Sequence record: NC_105587.1
Source: Escherichia phage EC100
Length of the DNA: 64,000 nt
Direction: 5' to 3' (one strand)
In this document: positions 1,582 through 34,646 of the stretch, piece by piece
How positions within the stretch are numbered: the stretch's first letter is position 1
Layout: each line of letters opens with the position of its first letter
Made by a program: the position numbers and the translations under genes
The notes under the pieces: generated by a model
The model's database searches: none
The model's input: only the letters and a program-made list of their open reading frames with translations
Told to the model about the DNA's origin: nothing

Positions 1582-1650
1582 GTTTATCTTGTTCTGTCAT
1601 GTTGCTTCTCCAGTTCAATTTATGTAATTATTATACAGAACTTTTGGAAA

Positions 1651-2675: not shown

Positions 2676-2765
2676 TCGTTAACTCCTTCATCAATTTATA
2701 TAACTATTATACCAGAAATTTAAAGCAAAAGGCAAGTACATTTTTAAAAATTCTGTTCGGAGGAG

Positions 2766-4848: not shown

Positions 4849-5840
4849 TGACAGAAGAAGTAGCTAAGAGTCCTGAGACCGTCGCTAGCGTTGCGGCAGA
4901 ACTGCACCGTCACGAGGAATCAGATAAGAAAAAGTGGGAGAAGGTCAGAGCCTACGAAGAAAAACATCGTGAACACGATGATGAAGACGATGAAGATGAC
5001 GATGATGAACATTGTCATAAATATGGAAAACATAAAATGCAAGAACCAGTAAACGTATTTACTAATGGCTTCCCTGGCCTACTAGGTGGTTACCCAGCAA
5101 ACGTAGGTGCTTTCGGTGGTGAAGGTATGGGACTATTCGGAGCTATCCTAATCGGCGCTCTATTAACAGGCGGATTCGGTGGTTTCGGTGGATTCGGTGG
5201 ACGTGGTGTTGTTGGTGAAGGTACCGCAGTTGATGCAGTACTTCAGAACCAAGATACCGCTAGTATTCTAGCAGCTATCAACACTACTCGTACAGAAGCT
5301 AACCAGGGTACCGGAGCTGTTTTAAGCGCAGTTAACAATGGTTTTAGCCAGACATCCCAAAACCAGAGCCGTGATACTCAGTCTGTATTAACTACGATCT
5401 ATGGTACAGGTGCTAATCTGTCTAATCAGATCTGCCAGGAAACCCGCAACGTTATTCAGGGTCAGTTCGATCTTTCTCGCCAGATTGATCAATCTTTCGC
5501 AGCTAACCAGATAGCTCGTGCACAAGATAAATTTGATTCTGCACAGATAGCTTTCCAGCAGACTTTACAAACTAATAACCAGTTTGCCGCTGTTCAGGCT
5601 CAGATGTGTGCTAACCAGAACTCTCTGGAACGTCAGATCGCTGAATGTTGCTGTGAACTTCAGACTGCGATCGCTGGTGTAACTACTGCGCGTATCCAGG
5701 ATGAGTTAGATGCATGTCGCCTACGTGAAGCAATCGCTGCGGGTAGCGGTGCTAACGGTCAGGTAATTAATCAAATCGCTTTAAGTCTTGGTGCTATCAC
5801 TCAGACTCTGGCTGGTCTGCAGGCTAAACTGCCGGCTTAA
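4849..5840 (+). CDS. low-complexity protein: acidic N-terminus, Gly-zipper hydrophobic segment, Q/N/T-rich Cys-containing C-terminus
   Basis: GGAGG ribosome-binding site 9 nt upstream of the ATG at 4849; acidic run DDEDDEDDDDE, GLFGAILIGALLTGGFGGFGGFGG, roughly 200 aa Q/N/A/T-rich tail with CCC. Confidence 0.55.
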
Positions 5841-6599: not shown

Positions 6600-7547
6600 T
6601 TATTTATTACGCATATCCATAATCATTTGGCCATCATAGCCAGTGCCAACCACAGTCTGCGGTACACCACCCTGATACTTCTGAGCACGAATCATTTCAA
6701 CTTCCAGTTGCTTCCAGCGAATCATCTCAGGAGTAATGGTACGTTGCAGTGCGGCGTTAGCTTCAGCTTCTTTCTTAGCTGCGTACAGTTTAGCATCTGC
6801 ATCACGTTCATTAGCAATAGCTTGGTTGTTGCGAGCTTCACGATCTGCTTCTGCTTGTTTAACTTTTTGCTGTGCTTCCTGTTCAACACGAGCTAATTCA
6901 GCTTTAGCAGCATTAACCTGTTCTTCACGAACTTTGGTATTCTGTACCTGTTCCATGATTACCGGTGGCAAAGTAATATCCTGAAGGAACACCTGCTTAA
7001 CTGTGTAACCATATGGGCGTGCATACTCTTCAACTTCCTGTTGAATTGCAGTTTGCAATTGAGCCTGAATTTTAGCATCAAACAAATCTTGTGCTTTAGG
7101 CACAGACTTACCAAACTCACGAATAGTAGACAATAATTTTTCAGTTACATATTTGTCTAACGCTTGATCCTGAGTACCTGCATTAATACGGTTAATCGGT
7201 GCCTTAGAACCATCAAATTGCAACATAACAGTCAAGTCAACAGTGGATTTAAACTTATCCTGACTAGGAACCTGAAGTTTATCTAATTTTACAGCAATAT
7301 CTTTTGTACTAAAAGTATCGAAAGATGCAAACGGGTTTACAAGATGGAAACCAGGTAATACTGGGTTAGGATCTACTTTACCCAGAAATGTTTGGGTTTT
7401 AACCGTACCATCAGAAACAATAGTATATGAATTAAAAGCTAGGATTAAACCTGCTAAACCAACTACAGCACCAATACCCCAACGTTTAATAGTACGAATT
7501 ACTTTCTGCTCAGAAGTCAGTTCTTTCATATTTTTAGTATTAAACAT
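6600..7547 (-). CDS. SPFH/band-7 (HflC/prohibitin-like) membrane protein
   Basis: N-terminal transmembrane helix (WGIGAVVGLAGLILAF), SPFH-like core, C-terminal Ala/Glu/Gln-rich coiled coil; ATG with AGGA ribosome-binding site. Confidence 0.65.
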   Translation of the reverse strand: MFNTKNMKELTSEQKVIRTIKRWGIGAVVGLAGLILAFNSYTIVSDGTVKTQTFLGKVDPNPVLPGFHLVNPFASFDTFSTKDIAVKLDKLQVPSQDKFKSTVDLTVMLQFDGSKAPINRINAGTQDQALDKYVTEKLLSTIREFGKSVPKAQDLFDAKIQAQLQTAIQQEVEEYARPYGYTVKQVFLQDITLPPVIMEQVQNTKVREEQVNAAKAELARVEQEAQQKVKQAEADREARNNQAIANERDADAKLYAAKKEAEANAALQRTITPEMIRWKQLEVEMIRAQKYQGGVPQTVVGTGYDGQMIMDMRNK

Positions 7548-9788: not shown

Positions 9789-10230
9789 AATAGCCTCGTT
9801 TCATCAATTTAAAAATATATTATACATATAATTTAGTAGATTAGCAAATACATTTTTAAATTGTGAAACTAGTAAACCGATAAACAGCCTAGAGGCGCCA
9901 CAGGCCATATCTTATGAGCCATGTACCTTTGATCTAGGGTTTGAATCATCAACGAATACTTTGCATCTTTTAGCTTTAGAAGTTTAGAAGTTTGAGTTCT
10001 TTAAACTTTTCAGCTTTCATACTTAAATGTTGATCTTTGAAGTTGTGTCGGTAATATCAACGACGCTTTGTTCTTACGTGTCAGCTTAAAAGGCTGGTGT
10101 AATAAACATAATCTCCAATAGATTATACTTTATAGTATGGTCAGCGGTCTTATTTAACCTCGTATTTCAACCGCTGTTGCGAGGTAAGATGCTTGGGCTT
10201 TCGTCTACCGATTTACTAGCTTTTAAATTA

Positions 10231-31138: not shown

Positions 31139-31435
31139 ATGACTAAAGCTGAAATTATTGCACAGTGCGAAAAATTTGGTGAGTTTTATCTTCATTACGA
31201 GAAACTTCGTCAGAAAGGAACCACGTACCTTCAGGGTACAATGGAATTTGATCCAGCCCAAGATAAATATCTGGCTGAGCGTATTAAACGTGAACGTATT
31301 CGTAAAGCGAAAGATGATGAAATCCTTGTCTTCTCTCGTACTAATGATAGCTTCCGTTTTATTCCTGTCGAGAAAGTTCGTCGTGTGACTAGCCTCCAAT
31401 CAGAGTTAGATCGTGCTTCTCCAGTAGGCCGATAA
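31139..31435 (+). CDS. hypothetical protein (98 aa)
   Basis: AAAGGA ribosome-binding site; followed by an intrinsic terminator. Confidence 0.5.
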   Translation: MTKAEIIAQCEKFGEFYLHYEKLRQKGTTYLQGTMEFDPAQDKYLAERIKRERIRKAKDDEILVFSRTNDSFRFIPVEKVRRVTSLQSELDRASPVGR

Positions 31436-31443
31436 GAAAACAA

Positions 31444-31466
31444 TTAGCCCCTATATGGGGCTTTTT
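31444..31466 (+). terminator. intrinsic terminator
   Basis: AGCCCC-TATAT-GGGGCT followed by TTTTTG. Confidence 0.7.
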
Positions 31467-31485: not shown

Positions 31486-31794
31486 ATGAGCGAACAGGTA
31501 AATCAAAACTATGAAGGACACGTTGATGACCAGTCCATCATACTTTGGGAGAAGGAGGGAGAACAAGTAAGATTAACAGTATCTGAATTTCGTGGGAATC
31601 TATACATGGGTATTCGTTACTGGCTTCTTGATATTAATGATGAATGGTTTCCAACGAAATCTGGCTTCTCTTTTCCTTACACCCTAGAAACAACATCACA
31701 GCTTTTCTATGCGTTTACACAGATTCTCAGCGAATCTGAGGTTTTACATGAAGTACAGAAACGAGCTGAAGAACTCAAAGCCAAGAATGCCTAG
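31486..31794 (+). CDS. PC4/YdbC-like ssDNA-binding protein
   Basis: PC4-fold signature: WEKEGEQVRLTVSEFRGNLYMGIRYWLLDINDEWFPTKSGFSFP; 102 aa. Confidence 0.5.
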   Translation: MSEQVNQNYEGHVDDQSIILWEKEGEQVRLTVSEFRGNLYMGIRYWLLDINDEWFPTKSGFSFPYTLETTSQLFYAFTQILSESEVLHEVQKRAEELKAKNA

Positions 31795-31821
31795 TTCTTG
31801 GCTTTTTCTTTATAAATGTAT

Positions 31822-31850
31822 TTGCTTTCAACTCAGTTTTGATATATAAT
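31822..31850 (+). promoter_or_regulatory. T5 early-class promoter upstream of the ligase N-terminal gene
   Basis: TTGCTT, 17 bp, TATAAT followed by ATTTATATAAATT. Confidence 0.6.
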
Positions 31851-31881
31851 ATTTATATAAATTAATGAGAGATATAAATAA

Positions 31882-32853
31882 ATGACCAATGTAAAAGAAT
31901 TTATTAAACGCTGTCAAGAAGCATATTATCAAGGCATGTCTTTAATCTCTGATGAAGAATATGATCGCCTGGTAAAACGCTTCCCGTTAGAGGAAGAGAT
32001 CGGGCCTAAGGGTGATATTCCACACCTATATCGTATGTATTCTTTACAGAAAGTTTATTATAACCGTGGGGATAAACCACCATTTAATCCTTTAGGTCAG
32101 GTAGAAACTGATAAGTTAGATGGTTGTGCAATTTCTCTGCTATATATTAACGGTGAATTTGTTCAAGCATTAACCCGTGGTAATGGTATTCTGGGAAATG
32201 ATGTAACAAGCAACGTAAGATTGCTGAACATTCCTAAAAAGATTTCCCAAAAAGTACCTACTCAAATCACTGGTGAAGTTCTAATTACAAAAGAAGTAGA
32301 AAATAAACGTAACTTTGCCTCTGGTGCTATTAACCTCAAAGATAGTGATGCTTTCGTACAACGCATTGGAGAAGGCGGTTTAATCTTTGTTGCTTACGGT
32401 ATCCAATGTTCTGCTGAATCTGTAGGTATTACAGAAGCATATTTAAAAGATATGCTTTGGCTAGAGAAGGAGAACTTCTTAACAGTTGTTAATGTGCGTT
32501 CCTTTTTTAAATGGATTCCTACGGACGGTAAAGTTGTTCGTATTAATGACAATAACAAATTCTTCCGTGAAGGCTGGACTAATAAATTCCCTCGTGGAGC
32601 ATTCGCCATTAAAGAGGATGAAGAAGGCGAAATTACAACTCTTACTAAAGTTGAATGGCAGGTAGGGGCTTCTGGTAAAGTAACTCCAGTTGGTTATTTC
32701 GAACCGGTAATTATTGATGATGCTACAATTGTTAAAGCGACTCTTAATAACGTTGATTATATTAACTCTCTTGATCTAGAGATCGGTTGCCAGATTCGAG
32801 TGATTCGTGCTGGTGGTGTAATCCCGTGCATAGTAGAGCGAGTATACGATTAA
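31882..32853 (+). CDS. NAD-dependent DNA ligase, N-terminal adenylation/OB part (split gene)
   Basis: LigA-type adenylation block KLDGCAISLLYINGEFVQALTRGNG; own T5-class promoter upstream. Confidence 0.8.
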   Translation: MTNVKEFIKRCQEAYYQGMSLISDEEYDRLVKRFPLEEEIGPKGDIPHLYRMYSLQKVYYNRGDKPPFNPLGQVETDKLDGCAISLLYINGEFVQALTRGNGILGNDVTSNVRLLNIPKKISQKVPTQITGEVLITKEVENKRNFASGAINLKDSDAFVQRIGEGGLIFVAYGIQCSAESVGITEAYLKDMLWLEKENFLTVVNVRSFFKWIPTDGKVVRINDNNKFFREGWTNKFPRGAFAIKEDEEGEITTLTKVEWQVGASGKVTPVGYFEPVIIDDATIVKATLNNVDYINSLDLEIGCQIRVIRAGGVIPCIVERVYD

Positions 32854-32903
32854 TACATAACCCTTTGCTACCCATCTACCATATCGGAATTATAAAGTGG
32901 TTA

Positions 32904-32932
32904 TTGACATTTTCGCCGCTTAGGTATATACT
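32904..32932 (+). promoter_or_regulatory. sigma70-type promoter (TTGACA, 17 bp, TATACT) between the ligase halves
   Basis: TTGACATTTTCGC core identical over 13 nt to the 4757 element. Confidence 0.45.
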
Positions 32933-32996
32933 ATTATCATTCAGTTGAGGGATAGAAAGTTATGGCGAGGGTAAGCAAAGTTAGTTAAAATTGTAG

Positions 32997-33025
32997 TTGC
33001 TAAATGCTTAAATACTTGCTATAAT
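32997..33025 (+). promoter_or_regulatory. T5 early-class promoter upstream of the ligase C-terminal gene
   Basis: TTGCTA, 17 bp, TATAAT followed by ATTTATATAAATT and the AGGAAG ribosome-binding site. Confidence 0.6.
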
Positions 33026-33055
33026 ATTTATATAAATTGATAAGGAAGAAATTTG

Positions 33056-33835
33056 ATGAAAATCGAAATTCCAACACAATGTCCCTCTTGTGGTTCTAAG
33101 CTAGATCTTGTCAACGGACAATTATTCTGTCGTAATAAGTCCAACTGTCCAGCGCAATCAAGTAAGTTAATTGAGAACTTCTGTTCAAAAATGAAGTTAA
33201 AGGGCTTTGGCCCAAAAACTATTGAGAAGCTGGAGCTGACGAAGATTTCAGAACTATTTTACCTAACCGAAGAAGATTTGGTTAGAGCCGTGGGTAGCAA
33301 GGTTGCCGCTAAGTTAATTAGCGAATTAAATACTAAAGTTCGCGGAGACATTGACTTTGGTTCAGTTCTCGGTTCTTTAGGAATCCCTCTAATTGGAGAG
33401 GTTGCAGCAAAGAAATTGTCCCAAAATTGCACCAGTTTTCAAGATGTGAAGGCTGACGGCAAGGCTGGAGAAAACTATAAAGCCTGGCTAAATTCCCCAC
33501 AAGGCAAGGATGTTATCGAATTACCGTGGAAATTCACAACTGGTATTAAAGGTGCTAAAGCTGAGGTCATCATTACTGATGGTCTAGTAGCCCAGCCAAA
33601 TGGAATCGCGGTGTGTATTACCGGGTCTTTGCAAGATTTTGCAAATCGAACGGATGCAACAAACTATTTAGAAGGTCTAGGATATACGGTTAAGAAATCC
33701 GTTACCAAAGACGTCAAATACCTAATCTGTGAGGATGAATCTAAGCGTTCTTCCTCATCTTATAAGAAAGCCGAAACGAATGGGATAGAAATCCTGTCGA
33801 TTAAAGAACTATTGGAGAAAAATAATAATGTCTAA
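33056..33835 (+). CDS. NAD-dependent DNA ligase, C-terminal zinc finger/HhH/BRCT part (split gene)
   Basis: Zinc finger CPSCGS...C...C, helix-hairpin-helix region, BRCT-like C-terminus; AGGAAG ribosome-binding site and own promoter. Confidence 0.75.
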   Translation: MKIEIPTQCPSCGSKLDLVNGQLFCRNKSNCPAQSSKLIENFCSKMKLKGFGPKTIEKLELTKISELFYLTEEDLVRAVGSKVAAKLISELNTKVRGDIDFGSVLGSLGIPLIGEVAAKKLSQNCTSFQDVKADGKAGENYKAWLNSPQGKDVIELPWKFTTGIKGAKAEVIITDGLVAQPNGIAVCITGSLQDFANRTDATNYLEGLGYTVKKSVTKDVKYLICEDESKRSSSSYKKAETNGIEILSIKELLEKNNNV

Positions 33836-34595
33836 ACTGAACTGGAACGTAGAAGGTGTAACCGAGTCTCTGAAAGCAAAAGCCACTGCTCTGGGTGTTG
33901 CTGTAATCTCTCAAGAACAAGTAGCGGCTATCGCTGCTGAACTGGCTGCTGAAACTGGCAAAGACGTTACCGCTCGCTCTGTTGGCTCTAAGCTGCGTAA
34001 AGAAGGTTTCGAAGTACAGAAAGCTAACGAAGTACAGAAATCCCCGTGGACTCCTGAGCAGGAAGCTGAACTGGTTGATTTCCTGAACGCTCATGCTGGT
34101 CAGTATACCTATGCTGAAATCGCTGCTGCTGTAGCTGGTGGTCAGTTCGGTGCTAAGCAGGTACAGGGTAAGATCCTGAGTCTGGAAATGACCGCTTCTG
34201 TTAAACCAACTGAAAAAGCTGCTGCTGTTCGTTCCTTCACTCCGGATGAAGAAACTGACTTTGTTAATCAGGTTGTTGCTGGAGCTACTATTGAAGCTAT
34301 CGCTGCTCACTTCGGTCGTAATATCAAACAGATCCGTGGTAAAGCTCTGAGTCTGCTTCGTGAAGGTCGTATCGCCGCTATGCCGGTACAGGAAACTTCA
34401 AGTGCTAAAACTCGTGAAGATCTGTTAGAAGGTCTGGATCTGGCTAACATGACCGTTGCTGAGATCGCTGAGAAAACTGGTAAGTCTGAGCGCGGTGTTA
34501 AATCTATGCTGTCTCGTCGTGGTCTGGTTGCTAAGGACTATGATGGTGCCGCTAAGCGTGCTAAACTGGATGCAAAAGCTGCGGCTGCTGAATAA
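33828..34595 (+). CDS. abundant DNA-binding-like protein with three helix-turn-helix-like repeats
   Basis: Three repeats (YTYAEIAAAVAGGQFGAKQVQGKILSL / TIEAIAAHFGRNIKQIRGKALSL / MTVAEIAEKTGKSERGVKSMLSR); optimal codons; terminator downstream. Confidence 0.6.
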   Translation: MSKLNWNVEGVTESLKAKATALGVAVISQEQVAAIAAELAAETGKDVTARSVGSKLRKEGFEVQKANEVQKSPWTPEQEAELVDFLNAHAGQYTYAEIAAAVAGGQFGAKQVQGKILSLEMTASVKPTEKAAAVRSFTPDEETDFVNQVVAGATIEAIAAHFGRNIKQIRGKALSLLREGRIAAMPVQETSSAKTREDLLEGLDLANMTVAEIAEKTGKSERGVKSMLSRRGLVAKDYDGAAKRAKLDAKAAAAE

Positions 34596-34611: not shown

Positions 34612-34646
34612 TAAGGGGAGGGGGCTATGCTCCTTCCCCTTTTTGC
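34612..34646 (+). terminator. intrinsic terminator after the helix-turn-helix repeat gene
   Basis: AGGGGAGGGGGC...GCTCCTTCCCCT imperfect hairpin followed by TTTTTG. Confidence 0.6.

Follow-up and report, generated by a model that had tools for sequence, protein, structure and literature searches.

In T4-like phages, insertions of homing endonuclease genes have split nrdA and DNA polymerase genes, and nrdA in Aeh1, DNA polymerase gene 43 and topoisomerase 39/60 are cases of such "genes in pieces". Those cases share with the locus described here an essential DNA-metabolism enzyme encoded by two adjacent genes whose products reassemble.

For NAD+-dependent DNA ligases, the reference enzyme is E. 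coli LigA (PDB: 2OWO), one 671-aa chain with the domain order domain Ia, KxDG nucleotidyltransferase, OB, Cys4 zinc finger, HhH and BRCT. A two-gene ligase with promoters in its spacer is already known: both have stood in the T5 GenBank records (T5p114/T5p115; AY692264, AY543070, AY587007) since 2004-2005, and AY692264 carries ligA, ligB and promoters P-K28b and P-K28a at positions corresponding to those reported below. The orthologous enzyme of Providencia phage PR1 (PDB: 9HU3, 9I5I; released January and February 2026) is a two-chain enzyme with the same break point, deposited under the title [quoted passage not shown]. The split reported here is thus real but ordinary, a heterodimer-DNA structure of a related phage being already public. 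Searchable full-text literature yielded neither a paper behind these PDB entries nor T5 ligase biochemistry; the only mentions there list "ligase subunits A and B" in T5, and no experiment on the ligase of T5 or of the phage studied here was found in it.

We analysed a 64,000-nucleotide stretch of Escherichia phage EC100 (NC_105587.1), hereafter the window. By DNA comparison it is 100% identical to phages EC122, EC105 and EC104 and 97.9% identical to T5, placing the phage as a T5-like Tequintavirus isolate (Demerecviridae). Gene order, the 202-nt gap and the promoters are the same as in T5, with amino-acid identities of 99% for LigA and 98% for LigB and 100% identity across the promoter block. 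There is no difference of substance, and the window represents another isolate of the same genus.

A ligase in two genes

The ligA gene (31882-32853, plus strand) encodes the 323-aa catalytic subunit, in which an NAD+-binding domain Ia, a nucleotidyltransferase domain and an OB fold were recognized through Pfam, PHROG, alignment to E. coli LigA and a PDB match. The Pfam NAD-ligase adenylation domain (PF01653) is matched with E=8e-24, and the OB domain (PF03120, E=3.3e-22) covers residues 252-321, which pair with E. coli 284-390. In the alignment, K78-L-D-G corresponds to E. coli K115-L-D-G, the KxDG element whose motif I lysine, K78, is the one adenylated, and motifs III-V are also present. 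Ten residues are invariant across 34 LigA homologues (K78, D80, G81, R99, E132, D215, G216, K235, K244 and R309). In the same set of homologues, Y15 and D28 of the segment AYYQGMSLISDEEYDRL (residues 14-30) are invariant and Y27 is nearly so. In a weak HMMER alignment this region pairs with E. coli residues 29-42, in agreement with the domain Ia Tyr/Asp residues that bind NMN (Y22, D32, Y35 and D36 in E. coli); LigA thus has the residues that mark domain Ia. The protein belongs to phrog_3359 and covers positions 9-381 of the full-length ligase profile phrog_3869. It matches PDB 9hu3 chain A with E=2.6e-103, and its predicted model superposes on 9hu3_A and 9i5i_A with TM 0.80-0.83.

The remaining domains are encoded by ligB (33056-33835, plus strand; 259 aa from ATG), the DNA-binding subunit. 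Its start may be the ATG at 33056 or a TTG at 33053 (260 aa), the latter being used in the T5 record. All four zinc-finger cysteines (C9/C12/C25/C31) are present and align to the zinc-finger region that begins at residue 402 in E. coli LigA. The BRCT domain is supported by Pfam (E=9.2e-8), and the HhH region matches HHH_2 with E=1.8e-5 at 25.3 bits, under the Pfam curated cut-off of 27 bits. LigB falls in phrog_3498, covers positions 388-654 of phrog_3869 and matches PDB 9hu3 chain B with E=7.5e-81.

None of the domains and catalytic motifs checked is missing from LigA and LigB combined. Domain order and catalytic residues are shared with the E. coli enzyme; the phage version comes in two pieces and is more compact, at 582 aa for both together. 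LigA stops after the OB fold and LigB opens at the zinc finger, as in the orthologous T5 ligA/ligB and PR1 9HU3 chains A and B. LigA residue 320 aligns with E. coli residue 390 and LigB residue 3 with residue 402, which puts the break near E. coli residues 393-400, in the linker between OB fold and zinc finger. Between the two same-strand ORFs lie 199 bp if ligB starts at the TTG and 202 bp if it starts at the ATG. The LigA family has all its domains on a single polypeptide; here about 200 bp, with stop codons, a new ribosome-binding site and promoters, separate the two parts. The original prediction that an adenylation/OB part and a zinc finger/HhH/BRCT part form separate ORFs about 200 bp apart agrees with both the ORF calls and the Pfam matches. 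The single contiguous ORF that would have contradicted it is not seen, and the split is no sequencing error: in 429 phage records the DNA match extends over at least 80% of the ligA-ligB region, and all Demerecviridae records in the sampled table match LigA plus LigB in two or more separate pieces.

PR1 LigA and LigB are about 54% and 55% identical to those of the window, and the two phages share gene order and a gap with two promoters. The structures show a complex on DNA for PR1 only; homology to this orthologue suggests that the subunits of the phage studied here would likewise form an active complex. We propose that an ancestral single-chain ligase was broken in the flexible OB-to-zinc-finger linker, and that LigA and LigB would reassemble non-covalently around nicked DNA before sealing nicks. 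Very probably, the locus encodes the two-subunit NAD+-dependent DNA ligase that characterizes T5-like phages, with promoters for ligB and the downstream D5-like gene in a conserved gap.

Promoters and transcription units

Two promoters occupy the gap, both on the plus strand. The distal one, T5 P-K28b (32904-32932), reads TTGACA-17-TATACT and matches 11/12 consensus positions; the T5 feature spans 2685-2759 of T5 region L001 (window 32884-32958). The proximal one, T5 P-K28a (32997-33025), reads TTGCTA-17-TGcTATAAT (10/12 plus the TG extension; L001 2778-2852, window 32977-33051). It is followed by TTGA at 33037-33040 and by the ribosome-binding site AAGGAAG at 33042-33048. Taken by itself, the consensus scan finds no more promoter sites in this AT-rich DNA than chance would give (5 sites against 7.2 expected in shuffles), and we call the two gap promoters real because they match annotated T5 promoters and are conserved. 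Their hexamers are unchanged from T5 to Klebsiella and Providencia phages, those of P-K28b being invariant out to Providencia PR1, and the promoter block of about 165 bp is conserved at least as well as coding DNA. The named T5 features imply earlier experimental mapping, reportedly in Bujard-lab work of the 1980s.

Upstream, ligA has one weaker-looking promoter, TTGCTT-17-TATAAT (31822-31850, plus strand; -35 match 3/6), compared with two stronger-looking ones for ligB. It lies inside a "putative promoter" of T5 AY692264 (L001 1611-1678, window 31810-31877). The ligA and proximal ligB promoters have nearly the same -10 and downstream sequence, the cassette TATAATATTTATATAAATT(A/G)AT, and so look to be of the same class. 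The cassette 22-mer occurs in five copies in the window against 0.01 expected. The two spacer promoters and the separate promotion of the halves, as originally predicted, match the T5 annotation. Expression of the halves at different levels is plausible from these promoter sequences; expression at different times, also suggested originally, finds no support in promoters that look to be of the same class.

The unit upstream of ligA, with a PC4-like regulator gene (31486-31794), ends in a terminator-like hairpin (31777-31805, plus strand; 12-pair stem, then a T run). In some close relatives of the window, from which it is absent, a small ORF lies upstream of ligA. Downstream, a D5-like transcriptional regulator gene (33828-34595, plus strand; phrog_323, E=1.9e-71) starts within ligB, its start overlapping the ligB stop by 8 nt (ATGTCTAA), and therefore belongs to the ligB transcription unit. 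That unit is closed by a strong terminator-like hairpin (34613-34641, plus strand; 13-pair stem with 8 G-C pairs, then a T run). Neither pattern scan nor folding (fold z-score 0.05) detected a terminator after ligA in the window, whereas PR1 has an annotated one. Since both PR1 and the metagenomic contig L020 have a terminator after ligA, readthrough from ligA is not a conserved feature.

Taken as two strong early-type sigma-70 promoters, P-K28b and P-K28a would start the ligB-D5 transcription unit. Transcripts from the ligA promoter would probably read through into ligB-D5, and ligB and D5 would then be transcribed more than ligA. In vivo promoter use, ligA readthrough and the LigA:LigB expression ratio are here inferred from the DNA. 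The gap itself appears to work as a conserved regulatory region. It has no Rfam match at E<=1. An 8-codon ORF (32962-32988) behind a GAGGGA Shine-Dalgarno was considered as a leader peptide after P-K28b and rejected as a conserved coding feature, since the Klebsiella relatives and River4 lack its ATG. The conserved TTGAGGGA at 32945-32952, 3' of P-K28b, seems to fit better as part of that promoter's transcribed region than as coding sequence.

Split and fused relatives

A split ligase is found in more than 400 phage genomes, with hosts ranging from Escherichia to Vibrio. In close comparisons, protein identity exceeds DNA identity for ligA/ligB. Nine distinct split gap architectures were examined, and each carries between one and three promoter cassettes immediately before ligB; pairs of gap promoters spaced 93-96 bp apart are also found in Vibrio phages. 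The smallest gap (76 bp, L021) holds a single cassette. More variable is a slot directly after ligA, at 32854-32903 in the window, where it is empty and has no terminator. Extra genes occur there sporadically among relatives: one 64-aa ORF in bastian, three ORFs in River4, one or two in 70E37-2 and two in L022, all unrelated, and in one further relative an endonuclease gene. A large protein search with a concatenated LigA plus LigB query returned only LigA-sized matches among its best 120, LigB matches being unexpectedly absent.

Fused ligases of 555-586 aa occur in uncultured T5-like phages (P0150, P0158, P0170, P0172, P0177, P0178, P0179 and P0183). They are 34-41% identical over LigA plus LigB, with a continuous ORF and a linker of 8-25 residues at the place where a stop codon, promoters and a start codon interrupt the T5-type gene. 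Five contigs found by exact-protein lookup (P0150, P0158, P0170, P0172 and P0177) were examined for the fused neighbourhood. In all five the ligase is followed by a D5-like ORF, as in the split phages, and every split or fused relative examined has the D5 gene directly after ligB or the fused ligase. A DnaB-family helicase downstream and a primase are present in four of them (L013-L016), and L016 alone has a called PC4-family ORF upstream. Scanning IMG/VR viral contigs for patterns from P0150 and P0158 recovered no fused relatives.

One fused relative, L013, has TTGAAT-18-TGcTATAAT exactly in its linker and shares the 11-mer TGCTATAATAT with P-K28a. The linkers of the four other fused genes contain no such promoter. 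An internal linker promoter predating the fission was accordingly rejected, the L013 match being taken as chance or lineage-specific.

Origin of the split

Phage genes are sometimes interrupted in ways that leave one product, and we considered whether the two ORFs are rejoined (through an intron, split intein, translational bypass or stop-codon readthrough) or are an assembly artefact or pseudogene. We regard this as extremely improbable, having found nothing in its favour. The gap has no Rfam match and therefore no group I or II intron. LigA plus LigB (582 aa) is within the 555-586 aa of the fused enzymes, so the junction carries no extra residues and has no room for intein halves. With a gap of 202 nt, ligB lies in another frame than ligA, whose own frame meets a second stop 14 codons on. 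The same split recurs in hundreds of independent genomes under the protein-over-DNA conservation noted above, and the PR1 structure has two separate chains.

A tentative explanation, possible but still doubtful, is that an early-promoter cassette placed in the interdomain linker created or kept the split by giving a stronger ligB-D5 unit; fission would then be a by-product of promoter placement and not a ligase adaptation. The five fused relatives have no space for a separate D5 promoter, their D5-like gene abutting or overlapping the end of the ligase ORF, whereas cassettes directly precede ligB in all nine split architectures and the window contains several copies of the cassette. In S124, amino-acid identity is 83% for ligA and 94% for ligB while the promoter block is 98% identical, a pattern that suggests recombination at the cassette. 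Against this, the link between cassette and fission is a correlation, and ligB would need an upstream promoter whatever had caused the split. Nor does the neighbour-joining tree resolve a single fission; it is star-like and fits neither one fission nor several in particular. A broader version, in which the stronger ligB-D5 unit also yields an excess of LigB with a possible second role, and cassettes and slot act as recombination or landing sites, is more speculative and on balance unlikely. If it were true, LigB might, for example, bind the phage's site-specific genome nicks or work with D5. Compared across relatives, the locus is a clear natural case of a gene broken at a domain linker: fused forms stand in T5-like synteny, the split always comes with a cassette, and the landing slot varies. 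Its natural split points and linkers may serve in the engineering of two-piece ligases, and the comparison could help to ask whether transcription-unit design, and not mobile elements, drives such fissions.

The other original proposal, of a scar left by an excised mobile element, is not borne out in the window. In its specific form, a free-standing homing endonuclease gene would have split a single-chain ligase, as in the T4-like cases, and later been lost from most lineages, which we consider improbable. Its best evidence is Klebsiella phage Kpn24-P3, where the gene for a 232-aa endonuclease (with a treble-clef zinc finger and a T5orf172 domain at E=9.4e-5) lies exactly between ligA and the promoter block and has taken the place of the last few ligA codons; the unrelated ORFs of bastian, River4, 70E37-2 and L022 sit in the same slot. 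However, among 533 records with homologues the Kpn24-P3 endonuclease is unique at the ligase site, the others being less than 60% identical and elsewhere in their genomes, and it is therefore better read as a recent landing than as the cause of the split. The 76-bp gap of L021 holds a promoter cassette only. The window slot is 36-50 bp with no ORF remnant, and the rest of the gap is conserved promoter block. The window gap contains no ORF as long as 20 aa, alignments gave no similarity to the bastian or Kpn24-P3 inserts, and neither an endonuclease gene nor a remnant of one separates the two pieces. An ancient mobile-element origin of the split retains some small probability. In the T4-like cases an endonuclease gene lies between the pieces, whereas here promoters do, with an endonuclease only in one sporadic Klebsiella phage.

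Two ligase genes and the break between them

The halves of the NAD-dependent DNA ligase are separate ORFs, with coordinates exactly as in the original prediction. ligA (31882-32853, + strand) encodes 323 aa with Pfam matches to the NAD-dependent ligase adenylation domain (E=8e-24) and ligase OB domain (E=3.3e-22), and ligB (33053/33056-33835, + strand) encodes 260/259 aa with a BRCT match and with HhH families below Pfam's curated cut-off. In alignments with E. coli LigA (PDB 2OWO), K78-L-D-G of LigA falls on the adenylated K115-L-D-G, and LigB carries the Cys4 zinc finger (C9/C12/C25/C31) and a BRCT domain aligned at 180-253. Across 34 LigA homologues, little or no variation is seen at the catalytic positions or at the Tyr/Asp positions of domain Ia. 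E. coli residue 390 corresponds to LigA 320 and residue 402 to LigB 3, and the full-length phage ligase profile phrog_3869 (656 positions) is covered at 9-381 by LigA and at 388-654 by LigB, leaving about six linker residues that neither protein covers. Judged from these alignments and this profile coverage, the break lies within the OB-to-zinc-finger linker.

The gap is 199-202 bp long; no ORF of at least 20 aa is contained in it, and an Rfam search of it for an intron returned none. ligB and ligA differ in reading frame, and a second stop in the ligA frame follows 14 codons on. LigA and LigB leave no room for intein halves.

Identity over the 2.3-kb region is 100% with Escherichia phages EC122, EC105, and EC104 and 97.9% with T5, and at least 80% of it is covered in 429 phage records. 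The T5 record AY692264 carries ligA and ligB and names two spacer features, “promoter P-K 28b” and “promoter P-K 28a”, as well as a putative promoter ahead of ligA. The headline reading, a ligase split into two separately promoted genes, is therefore right, and neither the split nor the promoters are new, both being on record in the T5 annotation. The feature has also been structurally characterised in a Demerecviridae member, Providencia phage vB_PreS_PR1, whose LigA and LigB are the two chains of PDB entry 9HU3. LigA matches 9hu3_A (E=2.6e-103) and LigB 9hu3_B (E=7.5e-81), and an AlphaFold model of the window's LigA (pLDDT 88.5) superposes on 9hu3_A/9i5i_A with TM 0.80-0.83. The ligase works as a heterodimer in this relative, and the co-purification of the halves that had been proposed as a check is effectively already done for the PR1 orthologue by these two-chain entries. 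9HU3, titled as a PR1 phage heterodimeric DNA ligase in complex with 21-mer nicked DNA, was released on 2026-01-14 and 9I5I, with the same title but with “random sequence”, on 2026-02-18; no publication for either was found in the literature searched.

In the record of phage EPS7 (NC_010583; L010 1773-2753), ligB is annotated from 2364 only and the protein match comes in three pieces, a probable frameshift or sequencing error.

Spacer promoters and probable transcription units

The consensus scan places a distal ligB promoter, P-K28b (TTGACA-17-TATACT), at 32904-32932 and a proximal one, P-K28a (TTGCTA-17-TATAAT with a TG extension), at 32997-33025. Since the scan by itself is not above chance in AT-rich DNA (5 sites versus 7.2 expected), the promoter call rests on the T5 annotation and on conservation. 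The T5 promoter features map to 32884-32958 and 32977-33051 in the spacer and to 31810-31877 before ligA, and all enclose scan-found sites. Neither the -35 nor the -10 hexamer of either promoter varies in an alignment of T5, EPS7, S124, EC148, a Klebsiella phage, and PR1, and a TTG(A)GGGA motif shortly after the distal promoter is likewise invariant. Vibrio T5-like phages (~48-53% protein identity) also have two promoters before ligB, which lie 93 bp apart in 70E37-2, the same distance as in the window, and 96 bp apart in River4. Conservation of the last 166 nt of the gap equals or exceeds that of coding DNA, at 98% identity in S124 (ligA 81%, ligB 91%), 78% in Klebsiella (69%, 70%), and 68% in River4 (61%, 60%). 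These comparisons mark the spacer as a conserved regulatory block.

In Salmonella phage S124 (L011 801-2757), ligA and ligB share 83% and 94% amino-acid identity with the window, and the promoter block between the two genes is 98% identical; this pattern suggests mosaic recombination with a junction in or close to the gap. Downstream of P-K28b, at 32945-32988, a conserved, Shine-Dalgarno-like TTGAGGGA leads into an 8-codon mini-ORF (ATG 32962 to TAA 32988; product MARVSKVS), where PR1 has a 9-codon ORF. The ATG is missing in the Klebsiella and River4 relatives, and the mini-ORF is probably not a conserved peptide.

A terminator-like hairpin lies ahead of the ligA promoter (31777-31805), no terminator was found after ligA by pattern scan or folding (z=0.05), and a strong terminator (34613-34641) closes the ligB-D5 stretch. 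The gene that follows codes for a D5-like transcriptional regulator (phrog_323, E=1.9e-71), and its start and the ligB stop overlap by 8 nt. Given this layout and overlap, the two gap promoters probably drive a ligB-D5 unit, which would probably also be fed by readthrough from ligA; transcription of ligB and D5 would then exceed that of ligA. A weak Rfam match to the SpF51 sRNA at 31423-31466 (28.7 bits, gathering score 50, E=0.02) overlies a terminator-like hairpin (31446-31462) scoring on both strands and almost certainly reflects nothing but that hairpin.

A 22-nt “-10 plus downstream” module of the proximal promoter (TATAATATTTATATAAATTGAT) occurs five times in the window, allowing up to 3 mismatches, versus 0.01 expected: 1614-1635 (-), 2690-2711 (-), 9803-9824 (-), 31845-31866 (+), and 33020-33041 (+). 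One copy is the ligA promoter. The module looks like a repeated early-promoter cassette and might be a recombination site too. Its recurrence, as copies of the phage's standard early-type cassette, argues that the ligA and proximal ligB promoters belong to the same inferred timing class; the suggestion that the halves are expressed at different times is not supported.

Relatives and the origin of the split

LigA and LigB match in two or more pieces in every Demerecviridae record of the sampled table, and gap contents differ among these relatives. Between ligA and the promoter block, bastian has one 64-aa ORF, River4 three ORFs, 70E37-2 one or two small ORFs, and Klebsiella phage Kpn24-P3 a 232-aa endonuclease with a T5orf172 domain and a treble-clef zinc finger. 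All inserts align to a short slot right after the ligA stop, upstream of an intact promoter block. The endonuclease insert sits at the ligA stop, where it replaced the last few ligA codons, and is unique at this slot; its homologues in 532 other records are <60% identical and lie elsewhere in the genome. With inserts confined to the slot and the endonuclease singular there, the slot is a place where accessory and mobile genes land, and the endonuclease is a recent arrival and not the cause of the split. The reading of the gap as the scar of an excised mobile element is not supported; for the ancient origin of the split, such an element is an unlikely but conceivable cause.

A promoter cassette lies directly upstream of ligB in every split architecture examined. 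The arrangement is at its simplest in distant relatives: the split gap is 76 bp with one cassette in L021 (TTGCAA-17-TATAAT, AAATTGAGGAG, ATG), has a terminator plus one cassette in L020, and has two small ORFs plus three promoter-like sites ~85 bp apart in the metagenomic L022. Across the family, tandem promoters number from one to three. Among clustered representatives, compact fused ligases of 555-586 aa were found (38-46% identity to LigA, 34-41% over both LigA and LigB), in which 8-25 linker residues stand at the T5-type break point. Split Demerecviridae genes are their best matches among cultured phages, and their contigs have T5-like synteny. In L013 a D5 homologue (37% identity, E=4e-50) overlaps the fused gene's stop by 8 nt and is followed by a DnaB-like helicase (E=9e-72), then primase and DNA polymerase A. 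The neighbourhood recurs around four other fused genes, where a D5-like ORF overlaps or abuts the ligase, with a DnaB-family helicase and a primase called in three of their contigs (L014-L016). A promoter in the linker is not consistent (1/5 fused genes). In a neighbour-joining tree, all T5-type sequences form one compact clade and fused forms are mostly basal, with a few among split forms; its branching is too star-like to tell a single fission from several. Placement of a promoter cassette creating a separate ligB-D5 unit correlates with the fission and might explain it, and is the most interesting open reading.

The L013 linker codons at 6741-6770 (Leu-Asn ... Cys-Tyr-Asn-Ile) also read as an extended -10 promoter close to consensus, TTGAAT-18-TGcTATAAT, with 11 nt in common with P-K28a, which the four other fused genes lack. 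The L022 sites (5038-5237), upstream of ligB, read TTGAAT or TTGAAA, 17 nt, TATAAT. The vB_Kpn24-P3 endonuclease (L004 1756-2454) is free-standing, with its treble-clef zinc finger N-terminal, and its relatives are scattered through many T5-like genomes at positions other than this one, for example at ~102.9 kb in EC105. Immediately ahead of ligA is a further variable slot: between the PC4-like regulator gene and ligA, some close relatives have an extra 66-90 aa ORF (MET_P1_179_112, L002 682-954; chee24, L003 681-881; EC148, L012 528-800) that the window lacks. Seven bacterial-type LigA-like proteins of 376-416 aa (P0212, P0220, P0237, P0240, P0247, P0248, and P0262) stop where T5 LigA does in the alignment, and several jumbo phages (Serratia 2050HW, Erwinia pEa_SNUABM, and PhiPA3; among phage records H80 and H83-H87) either have an N-terminal match only or carry two genes for ligase. 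Such cases may be splits that arose independently at this OB-to-zinc-finger boundary.
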